Shown here: positions 2,996 to 59,402 of the stretch, one piece after another
How the letters are laid out: every line of letters starts with the position of its first letter
How positions within the stretch are numbered: position 1 is the stretch's first letter
Source: a virus
UHGV virus genome: UHGV-1451962
Strand: one strand, 5' to 3'
DNA: 64,000 nt
Position numbers and translations under genes: made by a program
Notes under the pieces: model-generated
Database searches by the model: none
Seen by the model: the letters and a program-made list of their open reading frames with translations, nothing else
Told to the model about the DNA's origin: nothing

Positions 2996-3463
2996 TCAGA
3001 GTTCTTTAGTTTCTGTCACAAAGTATTTGGCATTGTAATCCACCAGAATTTTCTTAACTTGGCTACTCTCCATTTGTGTGGCACAATAAACATTAAAAAT
3101 TGAATATTTACCTACATTTTCAATATAATTATGCGGAATTGAGTTTAGTCTTTCGTGAAGTTGTTTTGTAAATTCACCGGGGACAGTCACCTCAATTCGC
3201 CACAATTTTTCTTTTCTTCCTTTTGCTTCCGCCCACTTAACCGCATACACGCCAACCAGATTACAGCCAAAGGTAACTAATACCTTCTGCCACAGAGGGA
3301 AATCCGCGACTGTGTAAATAAGAACTATATTATAATAACCATAGTACAGAGCAGAAATCATGCTTGCGGAAAATGGTGTACCATTAATAGTTACAATGCT
3401 TTTGATTGTCGAAAAAACCACATTGGCAATGGAGAGACCAATAAATAACAAGAGTAAAGACAA
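2996..3463 (-). CDS. hypothetical membrane protein
   Basis: 155 aa with several hydrophobic segments (LLLLFIGLSIANVVF..., ALYYGYYNIVLIYTV...). Confidence 0.45.
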   Translation of the reverse strand: MSLLLLFIGLSIANVVFSTIKSIVTINGTPFSASMISALYYGYYNIVLIYTVADFPLWQKVLVTFGCNLVGVYAVKWAEAKGRKEKLWRIEVTVPGEFTKQLHERLNSIPHNYIENVGKYSIFNVYCATQMESSQVKKILVDYNAKYFVTETKEL

Positions 3464-6805: not shown

Positions 6806-7339
6806 TTATAACTTCATTCCATTTGTTTGAAATGCTTTAGCTACTTTATCAAAGCAATCTTCCATTTTAAGAATTTCCTGCTTCTTACTTTCTATCTGAA
6901 AAAGAAGATTTACATAAACTTCCTGAAGGTATTCCCGATACCCACTAGCATTGAAGGCGAAAGTATCTCGATAACAAATAGTAATATCACTTCTATTATA
7001 GTGGATGCCTAATTCTTCCCCACCATTAGCCGCGATCAGAGCTTCCTTTGCCGCCACCAGCAGCTCTCTGTATTCCTTATACTTCATAAGAAGCTCGCCG
7101 GCACGGTTTGTTACATAAGGAGCAGTTTCTCTGCATCTAGGCCCATTTGTATCATAGACCGGTGCTTTACCAACCACTTTGATGATATTGTGGTTGAAGA
7201 GAGTTTCCGCCTTAGAGCGTCCCTTACCACGAGCCGCATCATATTTATCAGAGGTGAAGGGTTTATCCCCGAACAGTTTAACAACCTGAGCAGCACCTTC
7301 CAGAACGCTATTGCAATTTTTGATAGAGAACATAATCAT
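6806..7339 (-). CDS. hypothetical protein
   Basis: ORF track start at 7342 is TTG; ATG at 7339 sits 5 nt after the RBS (complement of 'cctttcct'); promoter at 7366-7394. Confidence 0.55.
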   Translation of the reverse strand: MIMFSIKNCNSVLEGAAQVVKLFGDKPFTSDKYDAARGKGRSKAETLFNHNIIKVVGKAPVYDTNGPRCRETAPYVTNRAGELLMKYKEYRELLVAAKEALIAANGGEELGIHYNRSDITICYRDTFAFNASGYREYLQEVYVNLLFQIESKKQEILKMEDCFDKVAKAFQTNGMKL

Positions 7340-7365
7340 CAATTCCTTTCCTGTTTTCTGTTGTT

Positions 7366-7394
7366 ATTATATCATGCTTTTGCTTACTTGTCAA
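7366..7394 (-). promoter_or_regulatory. sigma-A-type promoter with extended -10 (TTGACA-N17-TGaTATAAT)
   Basis: -35 is complement of 'tgtcaa' 7389-7394; -10 is complement of 'attata' 7366-7371; TG at 7373-7374. Confidence 0.6.
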
Positions 7395-7611
7395 GAGATT
7401 TTATCAAATTGCTTGTATCTGTTTCAGTAAGAATTTTTTCCATCTCTTTGACAGATAAGCTGTCTACTTTTCTCTGGAAATCTTTGAGGAGTAAATCATC
7501 CCCACAGATTTCTTCCTCAATATCTACCCACTCTTTGTAAACATGGAGTAGTAAATATTCATCAGGTTCCATCAAAGAACCGCAGACAATGTAGCCATCA
7601 TCCAAAAGCAA
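7384..7611 (-). CDS. hypothetical protein
   Basis: 75-aa ORF. Confidence 0.35.
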   Translation of the reverse strand: MLLDDGYIVCGSLMEPDEYLLLHVYKEWVDIEEEICGDDLLLKDFQRKVDSLSVKEMEKILTETDTSNLIKSLDK

Positions 7612-29024: not shown

Positions 29025-30062
29025 ATGTTACAGAAGAATGATCTTTTAGCTTTAATGAAGGCTGTTGCTAAGAGTGAGCCTTCAAAGACTTATAGTTTTC
29101 AAAAAGTTTCTATGACTTATGAAGAAATGAATAATACTTTGCGTGATGAGCTAAATGCTCTTGCTGGTACTTATTCTTTATATCGTGAAAATAAGAATTT
29201 AATTTTCTCTTTATTAGAAGAGACTATGAATGAAGTTCTTCCTGTTCGTGTTTTAGAGCGCTATGGTCAATTTGCTGAGTCTAAGACTTTTAAACAGGGT
29301 GATCGTCCTGTCTTTACTCGTAAGATGGGTACCATGAGAGCTAAGCAGTTTGTTACTCGTGTTGGTCTGGCTGCCGTGTATGAAGTCTTTAAGCTTGGCC
29401 AAGAGAGCTTTGAAGTTCAGACAAGTGCTATCGGCGGAGCTGCTCAGATCGGTTTTGAGGAATTTTTGGATGGTCGTGCTGATTTTGCAGAGCTAACTAA
29501 TATTATTATGGAAGGCATGGATGAGCTGATTTATCGTGAGATTGCCGCGGCTTTAATGGCTTCTATTTCTCAGCTGCCTCAAGCCAATACCGTTCAGACT
29601 AATGGTTTTAATGAGGTTGGTATGGATCATTTGATTCAGACTGCTTCTGCTTATGGTAAGCCTACTATTTATTGCACTTATGAGTTCGCTGTTAAAATGA
29701 TTCCTGCTACTGGTTGGGTTTCTGATAATATGCGTGATGAAATGTGGAGCCAGGGTTATCTTGGTAATTACAAGGGTTGCCAGGTTATTGTTCTTCCTCA
29801 GTCTTTTGAGGATGAAACCAATAGCCGTAAGGTCATTGATCCTGGTTATGCTTGGGTGATTCCCGCAGGTGCAGATAGTCGTCCTGTCAAGATTGCTTTT
29901 GAGGGTGCTACTCATGTTCGTGAGCGCGAGAATGAAGATTGGTCTCGTGATATCCAGGTTTATCGTAAGGTTGGCGTGGGTGTTATGTTGACTAATAATA
30001 TTTGCTCTTATGTTGATACTACTCTTGCTGGTAAACTTGATAATAAGGTTGATCTATCTTGA
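29025..30062 (+). CDS. major capsid protein candidate
   Basis: 345 aa (typical HK97-fold size), strong RBS, followed by terminator hairpin at ~30095-30133. Confidence 0.45.
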   Translation: MLQKNDLLALMKAVAKSEPSKTYSFQKVSMTYEEMNNTLRDELNALAGTYSLYRENKNLIFSLLEETMNEVLPVRVLERYGQFAESKTFKQGDRPVFTRKMGTMRAKQFVTRVGLAAVYEVFKLGQESFEVQTSAIGGAAQIGFEEFLDGRADFAELTNIIMEGMDELIYREIAAALMASISQLPQANTVQTNGFNEVGMDHLIQTASAYGKPTIYCTYEFAVKMIPATGWVSDNMRDEMWSQGYLGNYKGCQVIVLPQSFEDETNSRKVIDPGYAWVIPAGADSRPVKIAFEGATHVRERENEDWSRDIQVYRKVGVGVMLTNNICSYVDTTLAGKLDNKVDLS

Positions 30063-33795: not shown

Positions 33796-34737
33796 ATGAG
33801 ATTTGGTGTACGCGAAATCTGTGATGTTGTGTTGCGTGCTAAAGCAAGACAAACTCTAGGTACTCGTACTTTTTATAAGAATGAGCCTGTTCTTTATTTT
33901 GATACTTTAAAGACTTCTAGCCTAGAAGGTCAAGCTACCACAGTTTATGCTCAAGGCGGACGTGGTAACTCTAGATTAATTGCCTGGGAAGGCGAGAAGA
34001 CTCTTACATTTACAATGGAAGATGCACTGCTTTCTCCTGAAAGTTTTGCAATTCTTTCCGGTGCTGGTTTGATGGATGCTTCTGCGGAAGCCCCTATTTA
34101 TGTTCATACTACTTCTCAAGTGCAGGTTGATGCTCAAGGCAAGTTTACTGTGGATGGTAAAATTTGTTGGAATGGCGGTCGTGCACAAGAAGGAAATAAA
34201 GAAGGAACAAATTATGACTACCATAAAGAAGCAGATGTTTTCTGCATGGCTCTTGATGATGCTGGAGAGGTTAAAGTCGAGCCTTGTGTTCCTGCTTCCA
34301 TGACTTATGATGATACTAAGAAGAAAACTACTATTGTTTGTTATGCTGATGCTGAAGGTGTTGAGAAATTAGCTGAAGGTTCTGTTGTTCTTGTTGATTA
34401 TTATGTTAAGAAGATCGGCAATGCTAAGATGATTGAGATTACTCCTGATGAATTTGCTGGTAGTTATTACCTAGAAGGTTCTACTTTATTCCGTAGAGAG
34501 TCCGATGGTGTTGACATGCCTGCTGAGTTCATCATTCCTAATGGTAAGATTCAGTCTAACTTTACTTTCTCTATGGCAAGTTCTGGCGATCCTTCTACCT
34601 TTACCTTTACTATGGATGCTTTCCCTGGATATACTAAGTTTGATCCTACTAAAAAGGTTCTTGCTGCTATTCAGGTAATTGAAGATAGCACTGGTGAAGA
34701 TACCGCTTACCGCGAGAATTGTAAGGCGACTTTTTAA
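33796..34737 (+). CDS. major tail protein candidate (possibly C-terminally extended by frameshift)
   Basis: 313 aa, strong RBS 'aaggagga'; stop codon lies in a 'tttttaa' context followed by a start-less in-frame(-1) ORF. Confidence 0.4.
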   Translation: MRFGVREICDVVLRAKARQTLGTRTFYKNEPVLYFDTLKTSSLEGQATTVYAQGGRGNSRLIAWEGEKTLTFTMEDALLSPESFAILSGAGLMDASAEAPIYVHTTSQVQVDAQGKFTVDGKICWNGGRAQEGNKEGTNYDYHKEADVFCMALDDAGEVKVEPCVPASMTYDDTKKKTTIVCYADAEGVEKLAEGSVVLVDYYVKKIGNAKMIEITPDEFAGSYYLEGSTLFRRESDGVDMPAEFIIPNGKIQSNFTFSMASSGDPSTFTFTMDAFPGYTKFDPTKKVLAAIQVIEDSTGEDTAYRENCKATF

Positions 34738-35126
34738 TTACCCCAAATAGTAACGTTAAAATTAGTCAGCTAGGGAATACCTATTCTTTAGTTGGCACTG
34801 TAGATAAAACTGATATTCCCGTAGAATATCAAGGGCTATTTGGGGATATAGCAACAGAAGATACTTTAAATAAGTATGTGCTTGTTAGATTAAATAATAT
34901 TATTCCTAAAAATGGTGCTACTATTATTCAAAAGAATGAAGCTTTAAAATATTATTATAATAAAGGTGATGTTAATATCACTGAAGTTGGTGGCATTTAT
35001 ACCAAGACTAAGGAATATGATGGAACTGATTCTGATTATGCTTTGTTAATTAAGATTGGTTCTACTGCGGAAGTTACTATTAATGATACTAAATATATTA
35101 TTGATGGTTCTAAATTAACTAATTAA
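34725..35126 (+). CDS. start-less ORF in the -1 frame: candidate frameshift extension of 33796..34737
   Basis: -1 frame is open from 34725 to 35126 with no ATG or RBS; the ORF-track version (34878) needs a GTG start without RBS. Confidence 0.35.
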   Translation, partial: GDFLITPNSNVKISQLGNTYSLVGTVDKTDIPVEYQGLFGDIATEDTLNKYVLVRLNNIIPKNGATIIQKNEALKYYYNKGDVNITEVGGIYTKTKEYDGTDSDYALLIKIGSTAEVTINDTKYIIDGSKLTN

Positions 35127-35131
35127 TAAAA

Positions 35132-35169
35132 ATAGGGAAGAGTTTTACTCTTCCCTATTTTTTGTTTTA
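35132..35169 (+). terminator. rho-independent terminator
   Basis: stem atagggaagag/ctcttccctat, loop tttt, then 'ttttttgtttt'. Confidence 0.55.
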
Positions 35170-35179
35170 AGGAGAAAAT

Positions 35180-36586
35180 ATGAGTAGTGATTTTGTTTTT
35201 GAATATGATGGAACTAGTTATCCTAATATTCATAGTAAACCTGAACATTATATAGGAGGAACTTTAATTCCTTATGCTCAAACAACAAATAAAATGGCAG
35301 CTATCAAAACAAGATACTTAAATATGATGAAAGCGCAACTCGCCAGCCAACAAACAGATGCTAAAAAGAAAGCTTTTATAGAAGGTATGGAATTAGCAAA
35401 ATTTGAAAAAATGGAAAAACAAATAGAAAATAAAATTGTTGAAGAATATAATAAAGCTGCGAGCAAATTAGGAGGAAATATTGGTGGATATAATATGGGA
35501 GTTGATGGATATGTTGCAGCTTTAAAATCAGGAGATAAAGATGGAGCAATAAAATCATTAGCTCAAATAATAGCTGTTTTTCACCAAAATAAAGATGCTG
35601 TTGCTTTATATGAAATGTTAAAAGATAATCCTCAACAAATTTATTCTGATATTTCTATAAACGAATTAATTAATGTTCAAGCTTTTATGAAAGTTATTGA
35701 AGCTGCTATGAATGGAGAAAATTATCGGAATACTCTAAATTCAATTTTAACTAAACCTTCAGAAGCTTTAGCAGCTTTAATAGGAACATATGCTGAAGCA
35801 AAAAGTGATACAGAAGTAAAAGATTTATTACTTGGTACTCAATCACAAAATATTAGAGTAAGTTTTAGTGGAGAATTTAAAGAAATTCAATCTAAATCCG
35901 CGGATATTAGTTTAGGAAATTCATATTTTTCTTATAATATGGGTGGTTCACAAGGCAGTCAAGGTATTGAGCTTTATGACACTTTTGATGTAGAAACTTT
36001 TGCTACTGTAAAGACTTATAGAACCGCGGGAGGTTTGTCTTTAACAAGTTATTCTGGAAAAAATTCTTTCTTAATTCCAGCTTTACATCAATTGTATGGT
36101 GGTGGAAACTCAATTGATTATCAAATATATAATACTTTAGCTTTTAGTGCAGGGCAAGAATCAGGAGCATTGGATACTAACTTTAGAATTATTCGGCAGG
36201 ATTTAATTGCTAAATTTGCGGAAAACTTTTTAATTGGTTTTAATACGGCTGAAGCACAAAGAGTATTAGTATATAATTTTAGAGCATATCCAGTATTAAC
36301 TATATTAGCTGATATAGTTAATGATGCTAAAAATGCGGTTAGAGAAGGAAATTTATATGGTTCTTTAAGTAGTGGTGATTTATTTAGTATTTCTTTGACT
36401 AAAAGTGCTGTTGATAATAGTTGGGTTGGTCAAAAAGATATAACAAATAAAGCAAATAAAGCTGTTCGTGTAAAAAGAGCTTATAATCAAATTAATAGTA
36501 TTGCAATGCAAGGTCATATTAGTGGTAGATATGTTAGTTCTAATTTAAGAAAATATTTAACAGCGGCGAATGGAATACCTATTTAA
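35180..36586 (+). CDS. hypothetical tail protein
   Basis: 468 aa, RBS 'aaggagaaaat'. Confidence 0.4.
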   Translation: MSSDFVFEYDGTSYPNIHSKPEHYIGGTLIPYAQTTNKMAAIKTRYLNMMKAQLASQQTDAKKKAFIEGMELAKFEKMEKQIENKIVEEYNKAASKLGGNIGGYNMGVDGYVAALKSGDKDGAIKSLAQIIAVFHQNKDAVALYEMLKDNPQQIYSDISINELINVQAFMKVIEAAMNGENYRNTLNSILTKPSEALAALIGTYAEAKSDTEVKDLLLGTQSQNIRVSFSGEFKEIQSKSADISLGNSYFSYNMGGSQGSQGIELYDTFDVETFATVKTYRTAGGLSLTSYSGKNSFLIPALHQLYGGGNSIDYQIYNTLAFSAGQESGALDTNFRIIRQDLIAKFAENFLIGFNTAEAQRVLVYNFRAYPVLTILADIVNDAKNAVREGNLYGSLSSGDLFSISLTKSAVDNSWVGQKDITNKANKAVRVKRAYNQINSIAMQGHISGRYVSSNLRKYLTAANGIPI

Positions 36587-37316: not shown

Positions 37317-40300
37317 ATGGCTAAAAGACTTAATTATGAAGTAGGCTTTACTGGCGATACTTCACAATTAAAAGCGTCTTTAAATGATGCTGTAAAAGCT
37401 TTACAAAAATTAGGTACTTCTTCAACTACTCAAATGACTCAGGGTATGCGGGAAGCATCTAAATCTGCATTAGAATTAGCTAATAATTTAAAAACTGCTA
37501 CTAATCAAGAAACAGGAAAATTAGATTTAGTAACTTTTAATAGAAATTTAGCTAATAGTAAGATGACCATTAGTGATTATGCTAAGCAATTATCTCAATT
37601 AGGCCCTACTGGTCAGCAAGCTTTTATGAAAGTTGCGCAAGCAGTTACTTCTGCGGAATTACCAATGAGACGTACTAATAAAGTATTGGATGAATTGTGG
37701 ACAACAATGAAAAATACTGCTCGTTGGCAATTAACCTCAAGTGCGTTGCATGGATTTATGGGAGCTTTAAATACTTGTGTTGGATATTCTAAAGCTTTAG
37801 ATAAATCTTTAAATTCTATCAGAATTGTTACTGAACAATCAGCTGAACAAATGGCTGATTTTGCAGTTCAAGCTAATAGTGCTGCAAAAAATTTAAGTAC
37901 AACAACAACAGATTATACGGATGCAGCATTGATATATTATCAACAAGGTTTAAATGACAAAGAAGTTCTTGATAGAACTGATATTACTATTAAAATGGCC
38001 AATGCCGCAAATGAAAGTGCTCAAGTAGTTTCTGACCAATTAACTGCGGTTTGGAATAACTTTTATGATGGTTCACAATCATTAGAGCATTATGCTGATG
38101 CGATGGTGGCGTTAGGTGCTGCTACTGCTTCTAGTTCAGATGAAATTGCTGGCGGCTTAGAGAAGTTTGCATCAATCGCAGACATGATTGGGTTAAGCTT
38201 TGATTATGCTGCTTCTGCTTTAGCAACAATTACTGCTACAACTCGTCAAAGCGAAGATGTTGTTGGTACTGCTTTGAAAACTATTTTTGCTCGTATTCAA
38301 GGTTTGAATTTAGGAGAGACCCTTGAAGATGGCACTGATTTAAATAAATATTCAGAAGCTTTGAGCAAAGTTGGTGTTTCAATTAAAGATTCTAATGGCG
38401 ATTTGCGTAATATGGATGCTATCTTAGATGATATAGGCGCAAAATGGGGTACTTTAACAAAAGACCAACAAGTAGCATTAGCGCAAACAGTAGCCGGCGT
38501 TCGTCAATACAACCAGTTAGTTTCTTTAATGGATAATTGGGATTTCTTTGAAGATAATTTAAAGATTGCCCAAAATTCTGAAGGTGAATTAAATAAGCAG
38601 GCTGATATTTATGCAGAATCTTGGGAGGCCGCGAGAAAAAGAGTTAAAGCTGCGGCAGAAGATATTTATGATAGCATTTTGAATCCTGAGAGCATTGTTG
38701 CTATTGATGATGTTTTAACTCCATTTTTAAGTGGAATAGCGCAAGTTGTTAATGCTTTAGGTGGATTAAAAGGTATTGCTTTAGTTGTTGGTTCTGTCCT
38801 TACTTCTGTTTATAGTGGTAAATTGGTAAATGGTTTACAAAATTTTGCTACTAATATTCAGATTATGACTGGACTTCAAGGAAAATTAACAAGAAGCTTA
38901 CAAGAACAAACCGTAACTGAAGCAGAAAATCTTGATATTATAATTGGTGGTAATCGTGCTTTAGAAACTGAAATTTCTTTGATGCGAGAAAAAGTTCAGT
39001 TACAAGGTATGATTAATAAATATACCAAGAATTATGACCAAAGTCAAATGTTACAAGTCAATCAGCGAGTAGGCGTTATTGATGCTTTGCGTCAACAAAT
39101 TATGGCTTCTGCTCAAAAACAAACTGCTTTGTTGGGTGAAGCTGAAGAATTTAAAACAACTATATTGTTAGATATAGAGCCAAAACCTGGTTGGGAAGAA
39201 AGATTTAGACAGAAAATTTTACAATTTAATACTAATATGGTTAATGGGCCATTAAAAAATCTTAATTCTGTCTTTTTATTTGATGAAAAAGATGATATAA
39301 CAAGAACTACTGAAAAAGTTACAGCAAGTATGCAAAAGTTAGCTTCTCAAGCTAGTTCTATAGAAGCAGTAAGACGAGCTTATAGCAATTTAAATATAGA
39401 TCAAAAAGAAAGTGCCGTTGTTTTACAAGAATTAATTCAAAAGACTGGTTTATGGAAAGCAGAAATGCAAAATTGGTCTACTCCTAAATTACAAGAATTT
39501 TTGAATAACTTAGGTACTCAATCAATAGAAGCTTCTAAAGGGATGCAACTTTTAAAACAAGCTTTAATGGAATTAAGTTATTCTCCTGAAGCTATTGATC
39601 AATTTATTAATTCGATAAGAAGATTAGCCGCTGAAGAACATAGTGCCGCAGAATATACAAGATTAATTAATGAAGAAATAAAAAAATTTACGAACAGTTT
39701 GCAAACTGGTAGTATTCAAAGTGAATCGGGTTGGGCAAAAACTGTTGTAAGCATGTCTAATCATCTTATGAATTTCGGAATGACTCTTTCCGCAGTTAGT
39801 AATATGGGTAAAGTTTTCAAAGAATCTATGGAAGGAAATATTACTGCGGGAGAAGCTTTCATTCAAATTATGACTAATTTGGGTATGATTTTGATGAGTG
39901 GCAGTAGCCTTTTCATGGCTTTGTCAAAATCAATGGGTGCTCTTGTTTCAGTTTATACTGGTGTAAATACTTCAGTAGCAGCTCTTACTTTTGTTACAAA
40001 ATTAAATACTGCGGCTGAAGAAGGAAATATAGCTGCAAAAATAGCTAATGTTGCAATTACAAAATTGCTTACTGTTTCAGAAGGTAGTTTAGCTGCTGCT
40101 ATGGGTATAACTATTGGCGTTTTAGCTCTTTTTGCGGCTGGAATTGTGTTTGCTGTAAAAATAATTGATGGTTTAATTGTAACTCAAAAAGAAGCCAGTC
40201 AAGCTATTGCGGATGCTACTCAAAATTATACTGATCAAAAGAGCAAATTAGATGAGTTAAATAGTTCTTTAGAGCAAACTAGACAAAAGATAGAAGAATT

Positions 40301-43300
40301 AGAATCTAAAGATTCTTTATCTCTTGTTGAACAAGATGAGCTAGCTAATTTAAAACAGCAAGAAGCTTCTTTAGAGAGACAAGCTGATCTAAGAGAGCGT
40401 ATAGTTAAAGCTAAACAAGCAGAAATGGCTTATGCTATTGCAGATAATTTTGACAAAAAATATGACAAGACTTATAAGGTAGAGCCAAAAGGTAGAACTG
40501 GTGCTGACACTTCTAATTTTAAAACACAAGAAGATTTAGATAAATGGTATAATAGTTTAAATTCTGACCAACAGGCAAAAGCATTAGACCAATATCAGAA
40601 TTGGACGCAACAGATAGCAGAAGCTACTGCTCAAATGACTTCTGAAGTAGGAGAAGATTTAGCTGAATTAGAACAAGACTATGCTAATTATTTAGGTGCT
40701 GTTGATTCTGGAGCAATTGTGGCCGATCCGTCTAAGATTGCAGATATGCAGGATAAATTAGCAGAATTAAGAAAATTAATATATCCTACTGATAATCAGT
40801 ATTATGAAATGGTTATCCGTCCGGTATTAGATGATGAATCTTTTGATGAAGTAAGAGATAAGATTTTTAGAGCTTTATCTTCTGGAGATATTAAAGGTGC
40901 TGGATTAGCCTTAACAGATGAAATGCGTTCTGCCATTGAAGCTGCTGGAATTTCTGTTGATGATTTATTTAATCAAATTGCAGAAAGAATGTCTCAGGCC
41001 AGAGAGACCATTAAATCTGAAATGGGCGGTACCGAAGAGCAATTAAATAAATTAACTGCCGAAGATTGGGATATTATTCTTACCTTGGATTTAGAAAACA
41101 TTGGTTCTTTTAGAGAATTAATGAAAGCTATTGAAAATGCTAAAAATACAGACCTTAAAGTTAAAGTAGATACTTCTGAGTTAGATGCAGCAAAAGATAA
41201 AATAGAAAGTTTAAATACTAATGAAGAGCCATTGGAAAAAGCCTTGATGTCTTATAAAGAACAAGGTTATCTTACTATGGATCAGACTTATGAATTAATT
41301 AAAGCTAACGAAGAATATGCTCAATATATTAAAAAAGTTGGAGATGAGTATGTTTTAACTACTCAATCTTTAACTGACTTTACTGAAATGGAAAAAGCTG
41401 AGAAATTGGCTTTAGACCAAGCTATTGAAGCTATGCAAAACAAAGGTAAAGTTGATAGAGATTATGCTCAGCAGTATGTTGATCTTTATAGTAGTTTAAT
41501 TGAAAGTAGTAAAAATTGGTCTGACCAAGAACGTGCAGATAGCGGAGAAAATTTTGATAAAAATACTGAAGCACTTAGAAGACAAGCTCAAGCGTTCCAA
41601 GAAGGAAAGATTAGCGCAAGTGAATATTTTGATGCAATAAATCAAAGAGTTAGTGAAACTGGGGATAATTTTGCAAAATTAAGTGATGGTATAGATGGTC
41701 TTAAAGAATCTGATTATGCAAAAACTATGATTTCCTCTACTACTGCTTTGGCTGATGGTTTTAAAGATTTAATCAGTGAAGTTGAAGCTGGCGGTACTAA
41801 TATGCAAGAGTATTATGCTGGTGCAGTTAAAGGTACTAAAGCTTTAATGAATATCACTGCTAAATCTAATAAATATATCACCAAAACAGCAGATGGTTAT
41901 AAAGTTGTTACTGATAATATTGATGATGCAACTAAAGCTACACAAGACTACAAAGATGCTCAGAAAAAAGTTCAAAATTTAAATACTTGGGAAAAACAAG
42001 TTGATCAAGCTGAAGGATTTAAAAAAGCAATAGATGATATTACTTCTTATTATGATTATTTAAAAAATTATTTAAATGATAATAATTGGCTTGAGTTACC
42101 TGATAATTTTGATACAACAACAACCAAATTTAAAAATATGTGCGATACTATGGCTGCTGATATTTGGTCTTTAAAAGATACAAATGCTGAAGCTTTTAGT
42201 GCGATTATGGCTCACATGGAAACTGAAAATGCTGGTTTTGATTCTAGTTTAATTACTTCTCAAAGTCAATTAGCTAGTGCTATGCAAGGAAATGCAACAA
42301 TAGCTTCTTCTGCTATTAATGGTCTAGCTGCTCAAAGTCAGATTAGTATTGGTACTTTATGTCAAATTGGTGGACAGTTATTACAATCTTTGGCAAGTGC
42401 TATTAGCAGTTTTAGTTATACTATTCAGGCGACTGGTGTTGTTGATAATCCTGGTGGTATTGGTTTAGGCGGAGGATTAGTCGATAAAATTGGTGCTTTA
42501 CTTACAACAGGAGGGAAAATTCCTTTTGAATGGGATATGCCTTCTGCCCATATTGATTTAACAGGTTCTGGTTCTGGTGGTTCACCTATGTTTAGCACTA
42601 CTGGTTCTGCAAGAGCGCAAAAAGTTAATGGCTCTGGTAAATCAAATTATATTCGTTCAAAAGACACTGGTGCTGCTAGCAAAGGTGAGTCATCAGGACT
42701 TTTAGAAAATATTTCTAAATTTGGTACTGCATTAGAAGAATATGGTAAACAATCTGTATTGTCTCAAGGTTTAAAAGCATTTGCCCCTTCAGGAGGAGGA
42801 ACTGGTGGTAGAACTCTTAACCCTAGTGGTATTTCTACTGATAACAATCGTCCTTCTGGTGGAGGAGGAGGAAAAGGCAAAGGTGGTAAAGGAAAAGGCG
42901 GAGGTGGTAAAGGAAAGGGAGGAAAAGGAAAAGGCGGAGGTGGTGGCTCCGGCTCAGATGATTCTCCTGAAATCGAAGATGAAGAAATTTTTGATGATAG
43001 ATACCACGATATTAATAATAGACTAGAAGAACAAAGTCAGCTACTAGATAAGATTGATACTGCTAAAGATAGAGCTTTTGGTGTTAAGAAATTAGAAAAA
43101 TATAAAGAAAAAATTGAAGCAATTAATAAAGAACAAGAATTATATAAAGAAAAATTAAAAAAGACTGAGGAATATTTAAAAGAAGATTTAACTGATTTAC
43201 AAAAGAACTTTTCTGGTGTTAAATTAAATATAGACTCTGATAGTAAAGCTTTATTAAATTATGAAGATTTAGAAAAATGGGCAATAGAAGAATATAATAA

Positions 43301-45932
43301 AGTAGTAAGAAAATATAATGCTTTAGGTTCTAAGACCGCGCAGGAATCTTTTAAAGATACTCTTGATGCTGCAAAGAAAACACTTGATTTAAGAAAAGAA
43401 ATTCTAGAGCAGTATGAAAATGATCAAAAGCAAAGAGTTGAACTTTTAGAAAATATTGCTGAAGAGGCTAGAAAGAAATTTAATGAAAAATTAAGTAGTA
43501 TTAATGCTGTTATAGAAGTTAAATTAAAGATTAAAGATTTTAAAGATACTAATAGAGAAATAGGTAAAAATGTTGTTGAAGCTTTTGGCGATGCTGTTAA
43601 TTGGGGCAAAAAACCTGGACAAATTGATTTCTTTGGTATGCAAGATAACTTAGCTAAAGCTAAAGACTTAGAAGAACATATGAATCAAATATTTAATCTT
43701 ATGTCTGAGTCTGAAGATAGTGCTGATTTTGAAAGTGTTATAGATTCTTTAGAAGATTTACATGGTAATATTGCTGATACTGTTTCTGATTTAAAAGATT
43801 GGTTAGAAAATCTTAGAGAGTATTTAACTGATGTTATTGATGCAGCAGCTGACAGATTTGCACAATTTACTGATCAATTAGACCATAATGGTACTGTATT
43901 AGATTCAGTAAAAGAATTATTAGATTTACAAGGAATAACTTATAAAACTGGTAAGAATTTTGAACTTTTACAGAAAACTATTCAAGGAAGATTGGAAACA
44001 GCTACTTCTACTGCCAAATTACAAAAGCAATGGATGGAAAAAGCTGCGGAACAATTAGCGGAAGCAGAAAAAGCTTTGGCAGGAGTTACTGAAGAAGATG
44101 CAGCTTATGATACTCTTAAAAATAATCGTGATGCTTTATTAAAACAATTTAATGAATCTCAAGAAGCTATGTTAGATGCAGCTAAAGAAGCTATGGAAAC
44201 GGCAAGAGAGTATTATACTAATGCTATTGAGAAAGCTGCTTATGATTTTGAGCAAGCTATTAGTGGCGGAATGGGTTTAGAATTATTGCAGCAAAAATAT
44301 GATAATTTAATTAGTAAAGAAGAAAGATATTTAGATAAAGTTAATGAAACATATGAAGTAAGTAAATGGAATAGACAACTTCAAAAAGCAATAGATGAAG
44401 AAACTAATGAAGCTTCTAAGAATAGATTAAAAACATTACAAAAAGAAATTGAAGTAAGACGTGAAGGTAATAAATTATCTAAATATGATTTGGATATTTT
44501 AGAAGCAAAATATCAAATGACTCTTGCTCAAAATGCTTTGGATGAAGCTCAAAATGCTAAAAATTCAGTGCGGTTAGTCCGCAATGAATCCGGCAACTGG
44601 GATTATCAATTTACAGCTGATCAGTCTAAAATTGATGAAGCTACACAAAAGTATGAAGATGCGGCAAATAACTATTACAATATAGCAAAAGACCAAGTTA
44701 AAAATATGATGGATGAAATTCTGCGATTAAAACAAGATACTTTAGACCAAATTAAAGATGTTTATGAAGATGAAAGTTTAACTGAGGAAGAACGTGGAGA
44801 AAAGATTGCAGAAATTCGTAGAAATGCAAATGATAAAATCCTTTATATTCAGCAAGAATATCAAGTATCTTTAGAAGATATGACAGATGCAGGTGGAGAG
44901 ATAATTACAGAATATGGAAATACTTATAATGATGTAATGAAAATTATGGAAATGGGTACTTCTGACTTTACTGCATATTTTGAAACTGCTCTTGATGAAA
45001 TGGAAAATGCTGCTGATAATTACAATAGCACTATGGAAGAAGTCACTGGGACTACTGGTTCAAATGTAGATGCTTTAAAACAAATTATTGATGATACTAC
45101 CAAATCTACTCAAGATTTAACTACTGCGGGTACTCAAGCCGCAGATGCTGTTTGGAAGAAAATTGAAGAAGTTCGCCAAGCTTCAGAGCAATGGTCTAAT
45201 TATGCAGCGTGTGTACGTCAAGCATTAGATACTTTGTATGAAATGTCTAACTTTGTAACTACTAGAACAGTTGCCGCTTCTGTTGGTGATATGAAAGGGT
45301 ATAATTCTAATATTGACTATTCTTCTGTTATGAATGATTATTTAAGCCAAGGTGGACAAGTTGGAGATGAAATATTTAAGAGTTTAGAATATCAAAGATA
45401 TTTGAAAATTCTTGGAGAAAATTTTGAACAAGGTAAACAGTATATTTATTCTAATGAAGATTATTATAATAAGCAAAATGATCCAGAGTTTCAGAAATGG
45501 CTAAAAGATAATGGCGGAACTGGCAAATATGAGGATTTTGTTAAGAGTCATACAATAGGTTACGCAACAGGAGGCTATACTGGTTCTTTTGATAATGAAG
45601 ATGGTAAATTAGCATTTTTACATGAGAAAGAATTAGTTTTAAATCAAGAGGATACTGAAAATATTCTTTCTGCGGTTTCCGCGGTTAGAACATTAGGGCC
45701 TAATTTGTTTAAACAAATAGAAAGAATTTTGGATAATAATATAATGGCAGGGCAAAATTTATTAAATGCTCGTATGGCTAGTTCTACTACTGTTTCTAGT
45801 GATGGGCAAATAGTTGAACAGATAGTGCATATTCAAGCTGATTTCCCTGGTGTATCCAGTGCAGCAGAAATCGAAGCAGCTCTTAATAATATTGTTAATG
45901 ATGCGGCTCAATATGCTAGTATTAGAAAATAA
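37317..45932 (+). CDS. tail tape-measure protein candidate (2871 aa)
   Basis: very long, largely alpha-helical/coiled-coil-looking sequence with hydrophobic segments and a Gly/Lys-rich repeat; positioned after chaperone-like gene and before large tail proteins. Confidence 0.55.
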   Translation: MAKRLNYEVGFTGDTSQLKASLNDAVKALQKLGTSSTTQMTQGMREASKSALELANNLKTATNQETGKLDLVTFNRNLANSKMTISDYAKQLSQLGPTGQQAFMKVAQAVTSAELPMRRTNKVLDELWTTMKNTARWQLTSSALHGFMGALNTCVGYSKALDKSLNSIRIVTEQSAEQMADFAVQANSAAKNLSTTTTDYTDAALIYYQQGLNDKEVLDRTDITIKMANAANESAQVVSDQLTAVWNNFYDGSQSLEHYADAMVALGAATASSSDEIAGGLEKFASIADMIGLSFDYAASALATITATTRQSEDVVGTALKTIFARIQGLNLGETLEDGTDLNKYSEALSKVGVSIKDSNGDLRNMDAILDDIGAKWGTLTKDQQVALAQTVAGVRQYNQLVSLMDNWDFFEDNLKIAQNSEGELNKQADIYAESWEAARKRVKAAAEDIYDSILNPESIVAIDDVLTPFLSGIAQVVNALGGLKGIALVVGSVLTSVYSGKLVNGLQNFATNIQIMTGLQGKLTRSLQEQTVTEAENLDIIIGGNRALETEISLMREKVQLQGMINKYTKNYDQSQMLQVNQRVGVIDALRQQIMASAQKQTALLGEAEEFKTTILLDIEPKPGWEERFRQKILQFNTNMVNGPLKNLNSVFLFDEKDDITRTTEKVTASMQKLASQASSIEAVRRAYSNLNIDQKESAVVLQELIQKTGLWKAEMQNWSTPKLQEFLNNLGTQSIEASKGMQLLKQALMELSYSPEAIDQFINSIRRLAAEEHSAAEYTRLINEEIKKFTNSLQTGSIQSESGWAKTVVSMSNHLMNFGMTLSAVSNMGKVFKESMEGNITAGEAFIQIMTNLGMILMSGSSLFMALSKSMGALVSVYTGVNTSVAALTFVTKLNTAAEEGNIAAKIANVAITKLLTVSEGSLAAAMGITIGVLALFAAGIVFAVKIIDGLIVTQKEASQAIADATQNYTDQKSKLDELNSSLEQTRQKIEELESKDSLSLVEQDELANLKQQEASLERQADLRERIVKAKQAEMAYAIADNFDKKYDKTYKVEPKGRTGADTSNFKTQEDLDKWYNSLNSDQQAKALDQYQNWTQQIAEATAQMTSEVGEDLAELEQDYANYLGAVDSGAIVADPSKIADMQDKLAELRKLIYPTDNQYYEMVIRPVLDDESFDEVRDKIFRALSSGDIKGAGLALTDEMRSAIEAAGISVDDLFNQIAERMSQARETIKSEMGGTEEQLNKLTAEDWDIILTLDLENIGSFRELMKAIENAKNTDLKVKVDTSELDAAKDKIESLNTNEEPLEKALMSYKEQGYLTMDQTYELIKANEEYAQYIKKVGDEYVLTTQSLTDFTEMEKAEKLALDQAIEAMQNKGKVDRDYAQQYVDLYSSLIESSKNWSDQERADSGENFDKNTEALRRQAQAFQEGKISASEYFDAINQRVSETGDNFAKLSDGIDGLKESDYAKTMISSTTALADGFKDLISEVEAGGTNMQEYYAGAVKGTKALMNITAKSNKYITKTADGYKVVTDNIDDATKATQDYKDAQKKVQNLNTWEKQVDQAEGFKKAIDDITSYYDYLKNYLNDNNWLELPDNFDTTTTKFKNMCDTMAADIWSLKDTNAEAFSAIMAHMETENAGFDSSLITSQSQLASAMQGNATIASSAINGLAAQSQISIGTLCQIGGQLLQSLASAISSFSYTIQATGVVDNPGGIGLGGGLVDKIGALLTTGGKIPFEWDMPSAHIDLTGSGSGGSPMFSTTGSARAQKVNGSGKSNYIRSKDTGAASKGESSGLLENISKFGTALEEYGKQSVLSQGLKAFAPSGGGTGGRTLNPSGISTDNNRPSGGGGGKGKGGKGKGGGGKGKGGKGKGGGGGSGSDDSPEIEDEEIFDDRYHDINNRLEEQSQLLDKIDTAKDRAFGVKKLEKYKEKIEAINKEQELYKEKLKKTEEYLKEDLTDLQKNFSGVKLNIDSDSKALLNYEDLEKWAIEEYNKVVRKYNALGSKTAQESFKDTLDAAKKTLDLRKEILEQYENDQKQRVELLENIAEEARKKFNEKLSSINAVIEVKLKIKDFKDTNREIGKNVVEAFGDAVNWGKKPGQIDFFGMQDNLAKAKDLEEHMNQIFNLMSESEDSADFESVIDSLEDLHGNIADTVSDLKDWLENLREYLTDVIDAAADRFAQFTDQLDHNGTVLDSVKELLDLQGITYKTGKNFELLQKTIQGRLETATSTAKLQKQWMEKAAEQLAEAEKALAGVTEEDAAYDTLKNNRDALLKQFNESQEAMLDAAKEAMETAREYYTNAIEKAAYDFEQAISGGMGLELLQQKYDNLISKEERYLDKVNETYEVSKWNRQLQKAIDEETNEASKNRLKTLQKEIEVRREGNKLSKYDLDILEAKYQMTLAQNALDEAQNAKNSVRLVRNESGNWDYQFTADQSKIDEATQKYEDAANNYYNIAKDQVKNMMDEILRLKQDTLDQIKDVYEDESLTEEERGEKIAEIRRNANDKILYIQQEYQVSLEDMTDAGGEIITEYGNTYNDVMKIMEMGTSDFTAYFETALDEMENAADNYNSTMEEVTGTTGSNVDALKQIIDDTTKSTQDLTTAGTQAADAVWKKIEEVRQASEQWSNYAACVRQALDTLYEMSNFVTTRTVAASVGDMKGYNSNIDYSSVMNDYLSQGGQVGDEIFKSLEYQRYLKILGENFEQGKQYIYSNEDYYNKQNDPEFQKWLKDNGGTGKYEDFVKSHTIGYATGGYTGSFDNEDGKLAFLHEKELVLNQEDTENILSAVSAVRTLGPNLFKQIERILDNNIMAGQNLLNARMASSTTVSSDGQIVEQIVHIQADFPGVSSAAEIEAALNNIVNDAAQYASIRK

Positions 45933-58262: not shown

Positions 58263-58297
58263 TAAGGGGAAGATTTTATTCTTCCCCTTATGTTTTA
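58263..58297 (+). terminator. rho-independent terminator
   Basis: stem taaggggaaga/tcttcccctta, then 'tgttttat'. Confidence 0.5.
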
Positions 58298-58313
58298 TAT
58301 AAGGAGGAAAATT

Positions 58314-58916
58314 ATGGCTTTATTTAAAGTTTTTTATGGAACAGAAGCTGAGATGAATCAAGTCGCAGTAAAAGAGTCTTATGCTTATATCCTAGAAGAG
58401 AATGATTGTATGTATGTCGATTTTAATAATGCTAGACATAAATTAAATGCGGGATATGCAGAAAAACTTCGGAAATTTAATGCGGCTGGAGCAGTTGAAA
58501 TAGAAATTGATCCAGAAGAATTGGTTTTAAATTCTGATATTATTGATATAGAACATGGTGGCACTGGTGGCAAAACTGCGGCTGAAGCAAGAACTAATTT
58601 AGATGTTTATAGTAAAACAGAAGTAAGCGATAATATTAAAACTGCTACTGATAAGGTCACTTCTAAGGCTTATCCTGCTACATTGTCCGTAGGAGCTTGG
58701 ACATTAGATGGAGAAGTTTATAAAATGTCTTATTTAATTGAAACTTTGAAGTGTGGTGCTGATGGTACGGTTCCGCCAATTATTACTTACACCAACAATT
58801 TAGAAGAATATTCTAAAATTGAAAAGGCTACTGCTACTCCTGGTTTTGGAGTTACTTTCGAGATAAAAGAAAAACCTACTGATAGTATAGGTATTATTAT
58901 TGTAGATAATTGTTAA
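58314..58916 (+). CDS. hypothetical protein (last plus-strand gene)
   Basis: RBS 'aaggaggaaaatt' precedes ATG 58314 (MALFKVF...); ORF track start 58290 is upstream of the RBS. Confidence 0.45.
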   Translation: MALFKVFYGTEAEMNQVAVKESYAYILEENDCMYVDFNNARHKLNAGYAEKLRKFNAAGAVEIEIDPEELVLNSDIIDIEHGGTGGKTAAEARTNLDVYSKTEVSDNIKTATDKVTSKAYPATLSVGAWTLDGEVYKMSYLIETLKCGADGTVPPIITYTNNLEEYSKIEKATATPGFGVTFEIKEKPTDSIGIIIVDNC

Positions 58917-58927
58917 TAAAAATAAAA

Positions 58928-58965
58928 TGGGTAAGAGCTAAATGCTCTTACCCATTTTTTTGTTT
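58928..58965. terminator. bidirectional terminator between convergent genes
   Basis: stem tgggtaagagc/gctcttaccca, loop taaat, T-run on plus strand and A/T-run on minus. Confidence 0.55.
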
Positions 58966-59402
58966 TATATAATATGATAATAAGGTTTTTCTTCATCAAA
59001 GATTTTCCATCTAAGAAAATCATCTAAAATAATTCCTATTAGACCTAGAATAAACCAAAGACAACTAAAAGATAAACATATTTGTCCTTTATAATTAAAA
59101 GGTAAATGTGAATAATCCCAAATATTAAGTTGTAATTGAATGTTTAAAATATATCCAAATAAAAATTCTAAACTTGTTATAATTGCGGTTCCAATTAATC
59201 CTTGAGCCAATAAAGACCAATTCCAAGGAATATTTTCATTTAAGCTACCTAAAATTAAAAAAGATAAACCGCCTAAGATAAACATTGACCAATGAGTATT
59301 TCCTGAATGTATATATGTTTTGTAAACAAATTCAATTAACCAGTAAATACTTCCGCCAATCAAAAATAATATAGAATTTCTAAAAAAAGAATTAATTTTC
59401 AT
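58965..59402 (-). CDS. multi-pass membrane protein (holin-like or other)
   Basis: 145 aa with about 4 hydrophobic helices. Confidence 0.4.
   Translation of the reverse strand: MKINSFFRNSILFLIGGSIYWLIEFVYKTYIHSGNTHWSMFILGGLSFLILGSLNENIPWNWSLLAQGLIGTAIITSLEFLFGYILNIQLQLNIWDYSHLPFNYKGQICLSFSCLWFILGLIGIILDDFLRWKIFDEEKPYYHII

Follow-up and report, generated by a model that had tools for sequence, protein, structure and literature searches.

In the 64,000-nt stretch of the virus genome UHGV-1451962 analyzed here (hereafter the window), we found that a tail tube (major tail) protein gene of the SPbeta/SPR YomU type, located on the plus strand at 33796-34737 and encoding 313 aa in the zero frame, is very likely decoded with a programmed -1 slip of the ribosome on its final sense codon, by which some tube subunits would be extended by a 130-residue domain. 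A -1 frameshift at this stop codon had been put forward in a first-pass annotation made from the letters of the window. As judged from comparative sequence data, this reading is supported by a conserved coding frame at -1, by a homolog (P0010) in which both parts are fused, and by a conserved RNA structure directly downstream of the stop codon.

Coding evidence in the -1 frame

The zero frame of the tube gene ends with ACT (34729-34731), TTT (34732-34734) and TAA (34735-34737), and a run of five Ts spans 34731-34735; the gene limits and the position of the tttttaa motif (34731-34737) had been given correctly in the first-pass annotation. The same holds for the overlapping open frame at 34725-35126: after a TAA at 34722-34724, the -1 frame is open from 34725 across the tube stop codon to a TAA at 35124-35126 (translation GDFLITPNSNVKISQLGN...). 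Counted from the slipped Phe codon, the putative extension coding region (34731-35126, plus strand) comprises 131 codons. The predicted trans-frame product consists of tube residues 1-313 followed by LITPNSN...KLTN and has a length of 443 aa, in line with the roughly 440 aa expected beforehand. Its predicted tryptic junction peptide is ATFLITPNSNVK, and ISQLGNTYSLVGTVDK is an example of a predicted peptide further downstream. The two remaining frames are interrupted by 10 and 27 stop codons over these 130 codons, so the open -1 frame is not a chance occurrence; the probability of an open stretch of this length is about 3e-5 or less. Among the window open reading frames (ORFs) of at least 100 aa, a shifted open stretch of more than 100 codons lacking a nearby start was found in only one other place, after a doubtful plus-strand ORF (7190-7540) that lies among minus-strand ORFs.

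The earlier statement that the -1 frame has neither an ATG nor a ribosome binding site of its own was borne out. There is no ATG in this frame between 34725 and 35126, and the first ATG, GTG or TTG codon is the GTG at 34878-34880 (plus strand), 51 codons into the open stretch, ahead of which no Shine-Dalgarno (SD) sequence was found. We rejected this GTG as a start codon: it has no SD and is not conserved, reading GTT in contig L005 (a synonymous Val change), and the 48 codons upstream of it show purifying selection when read at -1 and share homology with the matching region of P0010 and P0014. The TTG at 34720-34722 directly precedes a TAA in the window and in three relatives (L006, L008 and L009). 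Although gene callers report starts in the relatives, these called TTG and GTG codons stem from the conserved Cys codon of the tube gene; for instance, P0001, a 135-aa 'protein' called in L005, begins at a TTG that depends on the Cys codon being TGC there. Thus, no conserved independent start, which the first-pass annotation had named as a ground for abandoning the frameshift, was present in the homologs.

Close relatives were collected by a word-based protein search, which returned contigs L005-L008, and by a metagenome scan, which returned L009, giving five independent assemblies (group 1). The extensions in these contigs are 79-99% identical to that of the window, and in all five no stop codon interrupts the -1 frame before the common end point; the extension of L008 carries a 3-nt insertion, which is in frame. 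In the region upstream of GTG 34878, the variable sites are distributed over -1 frame codon positions 3, 1 and 2 as 12, 3 and 6, and the ratio of synonymous to non-synonymous codon differences is 35:28 in the -1 frame versus 2:57 and 18:44 in the other frames. The dN/dS ratio of the extension (Nei-Gojobori) is 0.21-0.35 in group 1; a second group gives 0.25-0.43. For the 48 codons ahead of GTG 34878, the ratio is 0.06-0.27 in five of the six pairs; the tube part gives 0.05-0.14 by the same method. The values of 0.21-0.43 speak against an unconserved chance frame, the other outcome that had been said to count against the proposal, and the lineages in which the frame is still open reach a dS of 0.9. 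As evident from these sequence comparisons, the -1 frame is a selected coding sequence that has no start of its own.

An exhaustive profile search using the C-terminal 82 residues of the extension identified P0010 (L091, 54-1307), a single ORF in which a YomU-type tube protein (PHROG 2729) is followed by an in-frame homolog of the entire extension. The check for a fused single ORF that had been proposed with the frameshift was thereby answered: the 443-aa window product aligns with P0010 in one high-scoring segment pair (HSP) that spans the junction, with 53% identity over 407 aa and an E-value of 2e-131. Additionally, the closest IMG/VR relatives of the tube (70% identity; L010-14, L018 and L035) are proteins of 463-464 aa in which another, dissimilar extension of about 160 aa continues the tube frame from this very point, right after a conserved ...RE-x-C motif. 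Because these L010-type tubes carry a different in-frame extension there, the tube C-terminus is a recurrent attachment point for extra domains. A profile comparison (hhalign) of the two extensions gave only a weak match (E 0.002, probability 13%), and homology between them is not claimed.

A second protein search with the alignment, together with contig look-ups, revealed two further groups. The extensions of group 2 (L090, L092, L094 and L097-L100) are 154-157 aa long and 41-51% identical to that of the window over the full length; a comparison of full-length homologs gave 41-46% identity. Those of group 3 (L095, L096 and L101) have 171 aa and share only the N-terminal ~60 residues. In every case of groups 1-3 (14 loci in three lineages), the extension is encoded at -1 relative to the tube gene, whose TAA is found at the same aligned position, and no stop codon or frameshift was seen inside the extension at any of the 14 loci. 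The N-termini assigned by gene callers (MCCSGG, MRSSGK, MYYSSGG, MPSTGG and others) vary freely before the junction, and conservation begins with (G/F)(I/L)I(S/T)PN; freedom to vary up to the junction is expected if the upstream part is selected in the tube frame only. Other searches with the extension found no match by tblastn against 50,697 GenBank phages, none in IMG/VR scans with the extension alone or as an alignment, and none in GTDB genomes that would point to a host; the metagenome scan yielded one near-identical locus, L009.

Shift site and downstream RNA structure

The candidate shift site U_UUU_UAA occupies 34731-34737 on the plus strand, where the tRNA-Phe on UUU (34732-34734) could re-pair perfectly with the overlapping UUU (34731-34733) and the zero-frame stop codon is directly adjacent. 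The site can be written as the heptamer G_ACU_UUU, with UUU in the A site, or as U_UUU_UAA, with UUU in the P site, neither of which is canonical. T_TTT_TAA was found in all five group-1 relatives, and the codon before it varies among ACT, GCT and GTT. At the same aligned position, the sites of groups 2 and 3 mostly read GTG GGG GAA TAA (with CTG in place of GTG in L101) and, in L097 and L098, GTG GGA AAA TAA; the latter contain G_GGA_AAA, a canonical X_XXY_YYZ heptamer. No tRNA genes that could serve as frameshift helpers were found in the window. We also considered the only SD-like string near the junction, AAGG at 34723-34726, as an upstream stimulator; it was rejected since L008 has AAAG there and the distance to the junction suits neither a -1 nor a +1 shift.

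The region downstream of the stop codon was folded with RNAalifold and RNAfold, and z-scores were calculated against dinucleotide shuffles. A predicted three-helix structure occupies 34741-34845 on the plus strand. Its closing helix is formed by a 5' arm, CCCCAAAUAGU (34741-34751), which starts 3 nt past the stop codon and 6 nt past the UUU codon, and a 3' arm, GCUAUUUGGGG (34835-34845), which pairs with it over 11 bp; the helix encloses inner hairpin 1 (34765-34796; 14-bp stem, 4-nt loop) and inner hairpin 2 (34811-34831; 8-bp stem, 5-nt loop). The first-pass annotation had suggested looking for a stimulatory structure at about 34745-34800; a structure was indeed found there, and its extent proved to be larger than that interval. 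The fold of 34738-34850 has an energy of -39.4 kcal/mol versus -21.3 +/- 3.0 kcal/mol for the shuffled sequences (z -6.0), and despite an average G+C content this energy is the second lowest among 2674 windows of 113 nt (18.8-58.9 kb).

The same architecture was obtained at all ten frameshift-type loci that were folded, with z-scores of -4.7 to -7.6, compared with -2.8 for the in-frame fused L091, and the structure begins 2-3 nt past the stop codon in all three lineages. In the nine group-1 and group-2 sequences, 100% of the closing-helix cells are paired, and compensatory double changes are present in 3 of the 11 pairs (C-G to U-A, G-C to A-U, and one four-state pair). The covariation score of this helix was reached by none of 500 shuffles, and pairing falls to 34-47% when the partner is shifted by 1-3 columns. 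In hairpin 1, two pairs covary within group 1, where one G-C to A-U change costs a Ser-to-Phe substitution in L008, and covariation is present within group 2 as well; at its position in groups 2 and 3 there is a hairpin of unrelated sequence. Hairpin 2 is paired in 94% of cells in the nine sequences and has no covarying pairs. In group 3, both inner hairpins are unrelated in sequence and are enclosed by the same closing helix (UCUCCAAAUAAAG / CUUUAUUUGGAGA). A search of Rfam 15 with 34741-34845 gave no match, even at E-values up to 1.

Shorter open frames were observed next to other tube genes of the family. The IMG/VR tube genes of L015-L033 and L088 (e.g. L020 3925-4052) end with GGGGGAATAA, a motif as in groups 2 and 3, and their -1 frame is open for just 27-36 codons, encoding an acidic tail (...LSFVEDEDEDLI) similar to that at the very C-terminus of the L010-type fused proteins; a small hairpin lies 2 nt past the stop codon. 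These genes may be subject to the same kind of recoding, with a short extension. Among GenBank sequences, the nearest relative of the tube, MT835936.1 (L001, a human faecal contig; 50% identity), ends its tube gene with GTA CCC TAG. At 3059-3190 of this contig, the -1 frame is open for about 38 codons and would encode a charged, acidic tail reaching a terminator; there is no obvious slippery site and no strong structure (z -2.4) at this tube end.

Proposed mechanism and rival explanations

In the mechanism that we propose, most ribosomes would stop at UAA 34735-34737 and release the 313-aa tube protein. A fraction would slip back by 1 nt on U_UUU (34731-34734), where a single tRNA-Phe would re-pair from UUU to the overlapping UUU; the slipped ribosomes would then read UUA-AUU-ACC... 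in the -1 frame as far as the stop codon at 35124-35126 and produce the 443-aa protein, whose 130-residue beta-rich C-terminal domain would project outside the tail tube. The slip would be promoted by the stable three-helix RNA at 34741-34845, whose closing helix begins 6 nt past the UUU codon, probably with a contribution from the neighbouring stop codon. Two variants can be envisaged. In one, the tRNA-Phe would slip in the A site, with a spacer of 6 nt as at classical -1 sites and a P-site tRNA-Thr that cannot re-pair. In the other, which is the variant put forward in the first-pass annotation, the slip would follow translocation, when the P site holds the tRNA-Phe and the A site holds UAA; the slow stop codon would allow time for the slip, and the ribosome would already press on the helix. 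Both variants predict ...C-K-A-T-F-L-I-T-P-N..., and the sequence does not separate them. In groups 2 and 3, the order G_GGA_AAA or G_GGG_GAA, then UAAUU(U), then the helix would correspond to classical tandem-slip geometry.

Several points weigh against this mechanism. The support consists of comparative analysis throughout, from which we infer the slippage event itself, its efficiency, the ribosomal site of the slipping tRNA and the role of the domain. U_UUU_UAA is not a canonical X_XXY_YYZ site, and only one tRNA is able to re-pair there because the ACU-reading tRNA cannot re-pair with GAC; re-pairing is likewise imperfect at G_GGG_GAA, the commonest site of groups 2 and 3. A preference of the tube gene for T-ending codons could by itself account for the invariant T at 34731. 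The covariation comes from few independent lineages, and the paired regions also encode the conserved peptides TPNS and GLFGD, so their conservation may be partly protein-driven. L091 retains a weaker closing helix, although a frameshift is needless in that contig. If the slip occurs with the stop codon in the A site, the helix, 3 nt past the stop codon, falls under the usual spacer of 5-9 nt.

The downstream frame might instead encode a separate extension protein, translated by re-initiation at the AUU (34737-34739) that overlaps the UAA or from a start at GTG 34878, with the RNA structure coupling its translation to that of the tube gene. An ATT overlaps the stop codon (TAATT) in all three lineages, and in every relative the gene callers list the downstream part as an ORF of its own. 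Classical coupling devices include structures that hide a start codon until translation of the preceding gene unfolds them, and the RNA structure described above could be one. However, AUU is a very poor initiator, and neither it nor GTG 34878 is preceded by an SD; the latter reads GTT in L005, and selection as well as homology to distant relatives extends over the 48 codons in front of it. The called TTG and GTG starts, as noted above, trace to the tube Cys codon, and the TTG of the window meets a TAA at once. P0010, moreover, joins both parts in one polypeptide, and the closest IMG/VR relatives fuse C-terminal domains at the same point. On these grounds we consider a separate protein improbable. 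Alternatively, the frame could be the decaying remnant of an ancestral in-frame fusion, as in L091, that was hit by a 1-nt indel and whose downstream part is no longer expressed. The in-frame fused versions in relatives make an indel origin plausible, and out-of-frame landing followed by selection for frameshifting is the accepted origin of such cases (PMC5009743). A remnant is nevertheless very unlikely in view of dN/dS values of 0.2-0.4 and a frame that is open across lineages with dS up to 0.9; the 3-nt indel stays in frame, the arrangement is kept in three lineages with different shift sites, and a conserved structured RNA abuts the stop codon.

The homopolymer situated exactly at the junction (T5 in the window, T6 in L006 and G5 at most group-2 and group-3 loci) would also suit slippage of the RNA polymerase on the T5 run, giving transcripts that have lost one U or gained two. 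For transcriptional slippage to be productive, the run generally has to be about 8-9 or more long (reviewed in PMC5009743), and the explanation leaves a conserved RNA structure at frameshift-stimulator distance unaccounted for; because L097, like L098, has just GGGAAAA at the site, we regard it as having very little probability. Homopolymer indels are also a common class of assembly and sequencing error, in which case the true gene would be a plain in-frame fusion. This explanation is practically ruled out because independent assemblies share the frame break: it is present in L005-L009 and in the 137,671-bp contig of P0002, which come from different samples, and where the run length differs in one assembly, the cause is a substitution and not an indel.

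Added domain, known recoding systems and genomic surroundings

The extension gave no match in Pfam and PHROG scans, and neither it nor seven proteins containing the domain matched Ig-like, Big_2, FN3 or carbohydrate-binding profiles; the profile search against Ig-like or Big domains proposed in the first-pass annotation thus gave no match. AlphaFold2 (AF2) modelling of the single sequence was uninformative (pLDDT 47), and a 20-sequence alignment gave a model with a pLDDT of 72 consisting mostly of beta strands, with which fold searches were non-committal as to the fold. According to this model, the extension is probably a folded, beta-rich surface domain on the tube C-terminus. Its C-terminal module of about 80 residues is also located at the C-terminus of the major head proteins P0006 and P0007 (PHROG 544), ends other proteins of 219-320 aa, and occurs in about 20 repeats in a 5212-aa protein. 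Such a promiscuous distribution is typical of virion decoration and adhesion modules, and the analogy with SPP1 gp17.1* and 936 TpeX suggests that the domain may bind the host surface weakly.

Promiscuous Ig-like decoration domains of phage virions were reportedly described by Fraser et al. in 2006. Like these domains, of which the C-terminal domain of lambda gpV is an example, the element found here is a beta-rich module of about 80-130 aa that occurs on tube and head C-termini and in giant-protein repeats and is attached in frame or via a frameshift (for the concept, see PMC5009743). As such domains move about, chance appears to decide in which direction a shift occurs, or whether one is needed at all (PMC5009743). 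The in-frame, -1 long and -1 short versions inside one tube family illustrate this chance choice.

Frameshift-extended major tail proteins have been documented in SPP1 (PMC6316719), in 936 phages (PMC4759559), and in Listeria phages and A2 (PMC5009743). In SPP1, gp17.1* arises by a +1 shift at CCC_UAA that adds an 87-aa FN3 domain; this surface domain is non-essential, and the short and long forms occur in the tube at a ratio of about 3:1 (PMC6316719, PMC8718954). As in the gp17.1/gp17.1* pair, the extended tube protein of the window would arise via a frameshift at the very last sense codon, beside the stop codon, and both phages infect, or appear related to phages infecting, Firmicutes. In contrast, the SPP1 shift is +1 on CCC_UAA, with a pause at a rare codon and a stop codon and with no stimulatory RNA structure described as taking part, whereas the window combines a putative -1 shift on U_UUU_UAA with a large downstream structure, a tube of the YomU/SPR family and an added domain that is not a recognizable FN3. 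The lactococcal 936 major tail protein MTP-TpeX uses a +1 shift at CCC.UAG (PMC4759559, PMC6669499), and Tsh of the Listeria phages PSA, A118 and A500 uses a +1 shift at CCC_UGA (PMC5009743). These systems resemble the window in extending the tail tube by recoding at a 'shifty stop', and their decorations probably bind host carbohydrates (PMC4759559, PMC6669499, PMC5009743). They differ in that their shifts are all +1, at CCC_UAG or CCC_UGA, and in that their tube and extension families are unrelated to those of the window. A +1 shift on a CCC codon beside the stop codon, as in SPP1, Listeria and 936 phages, is not present in the window; with UUU as its final sense codon and an open frame at -1, the window would work like the A2-type -1 cases and not like the CCC shifty stops. 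The major tail protein of Lactobacillus phage A2, and its head protein, are reported to undergo a -1 frameshift close to the gene's 3' end that gives a longer second product (PMC5009743; PMC5221750, the latter via Rodriguez et al. 2005). As far as the accounts in these sources go, A2 shares with the window the -1 direction and the longer second product, with no sequence relationship.

Outside the tube proteins, a -1 case is the lambda G/GT frameshift (PMC5009743). The window resembles lambda G/GT and dnaX-type sites in combining putative -1 slippage with a downstream RNA structure. The lambda site is the heptamer G_GGA_AAG, which the group-2 site G_GGA_AAA resembles. The stimulator of IS911 is a three-helix junction, and the window RNA is similar to it in this respect. 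Unlike lambda G/GT, dnaX and IS911, however, the window site would depend on the re-pairing of one tRNA against a stop codon, and its product would be a decorated structural protein instead of a chaperone, a polymerase subunit or a transposase. Taken as a whole, the mechanism is well known in other phages, and the case of this tube family, its RNA element and its domain are not known to have been described before. What is new here, and is well supported by the sequence comparisons, is the combination of a YomU/SPR-type tube, the -1 direction, a single-tRNA site by the stop codon, a three-way-junction stimulator that is absent from Rfam, and an unclassified domain. More tentatively, these features may together define an undescribed recoding cassette of SPbeta-like large siphophages: a '-1 shifty stop' with a single-tRNA slip and a three-way-junction RNA abutting the stop codon, in which the shift site turns over (U_UUU_UAA, G_GGG_GAA_UAA, G_GGA_AAA_UAA) around a constant RNA element and an unchanged stop position, and which would deliver a new family of promiscuous virion-surface modules that also occurs on head proteins and giant repeat proteins.

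Gene callers mis-split this gene in every relative examined, reporting either an ORF of 82 aa that begins at an internal GTG or one of 135-171 aa that begins at a TTG or GTG inside the tube gene; because of this splitting, current annotations do not show the decorated tube protein of this widespread metagenomic group of phages of about 115-135 kb. Recognizing the frameshift would correct the virion model to a tube studded with extra domains that probably aid host adsorption, and would define a new surface-domain family common to head and tail proteins. The conserved RNA stimulator and the natural variants of the shift site could be used for mechanistic work on single-tRNA -1 slippage beside a stop codon. 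The finding will not surprise specialists in recoding or phage structure, yet it is cleanly supported and mends a systematic mis-annotation.

The identity of the upstream gene was established from several searches. The 313-aa protein matched PHROG 2729 with an E-value of 3e-56, and a profile built from 14 tube homologs matched phage SPR's tail tube protein, whose structure has been solved (8k98/9jgh), with an E-value of 9e-5; phmmer with the tube protein alone found no match in the PDB. tblastn identified homologs labelled as tail tube or major tail proteins in phages of the Bacillus Tsamsa and Lactococcus 949 groups and in Enterococcus phages about 140 kb in size, and the precomputed Pfam assignment of the tube of the relatives is PF27173 YomU_Tube. 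The gene order in the relatives is YomW, YomV, tube, (extension), a protein of 468-536 aa, YomO and tape measure; the order in the window agrees with it, and a gene for a 2871-aa tape measure protein is located at 37317-45932. The gene upstream of the shift site thus encodes the tail tube protein of a large siphophage whose tail module is SPbeta-like. According to several structure papers of 2024-25, the SPR/SPbeta tail tube family, of which the window tube is remote kin, is the activator of the DSR2 (Sir2) defence; it is speculation that a decorated tube variant may also matter to immune recognition by DSR2.

An intrinsic terminator at 35128-35172 (plus strand; stem at 35128-35162, then a T tract) ends the transcription unit of tube plus extension. 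A terminator had been noticed earlier at 35132-35169; its presence stands, and its limits are those given here. It is kept in the relatives, with a different loop in L005, and is also present 3' of the fused gene in L091. The next gene begins at 35180 and is preceded by a good SD. This gene (35180-36586) and its counterparts in the relatives, between the tube and YomO-like genes, encode the products of 468-536 aa, for which no Pfam or PHROG match was found; the gene sits at the usual position of tail assembly chaperones.

The tube gene is intact in the window, and in several relatives it is interrupted by an insertion with a homing-endonuclease ORF (coordinates 1954-3860 in L006 and 772-3022 in L090). 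The ORF that splits the tube gene is of the HNH type in L006 and L101 and of the LAGLIDADG type in L090, L092 and L099; L097 contains an unclassified 303-aa ORF. In L090, Rfam identified a group I intron (RF00028) at 1957-2188 with 103 bits, directly upstream of the 3' tube exon.

Two other structured regions were observed in the window. The lowest folding energies of the 40-kb scan were found at 29720-29940, inside the putative major capsid gene (29025-30062; 345 aa); because this region is richer in G+C than its surroundings and its z-score is only -2.3, the fold is probably compositional and not a specific element. The other region, at 58865-58977, comprises 113 nt with 22% G+C that fold at -34 kcal/mol between the convergent genes at 58290-58916 (plus strand) and 58965-59402 (minus strand), and it is probably a bidirectional terminator.

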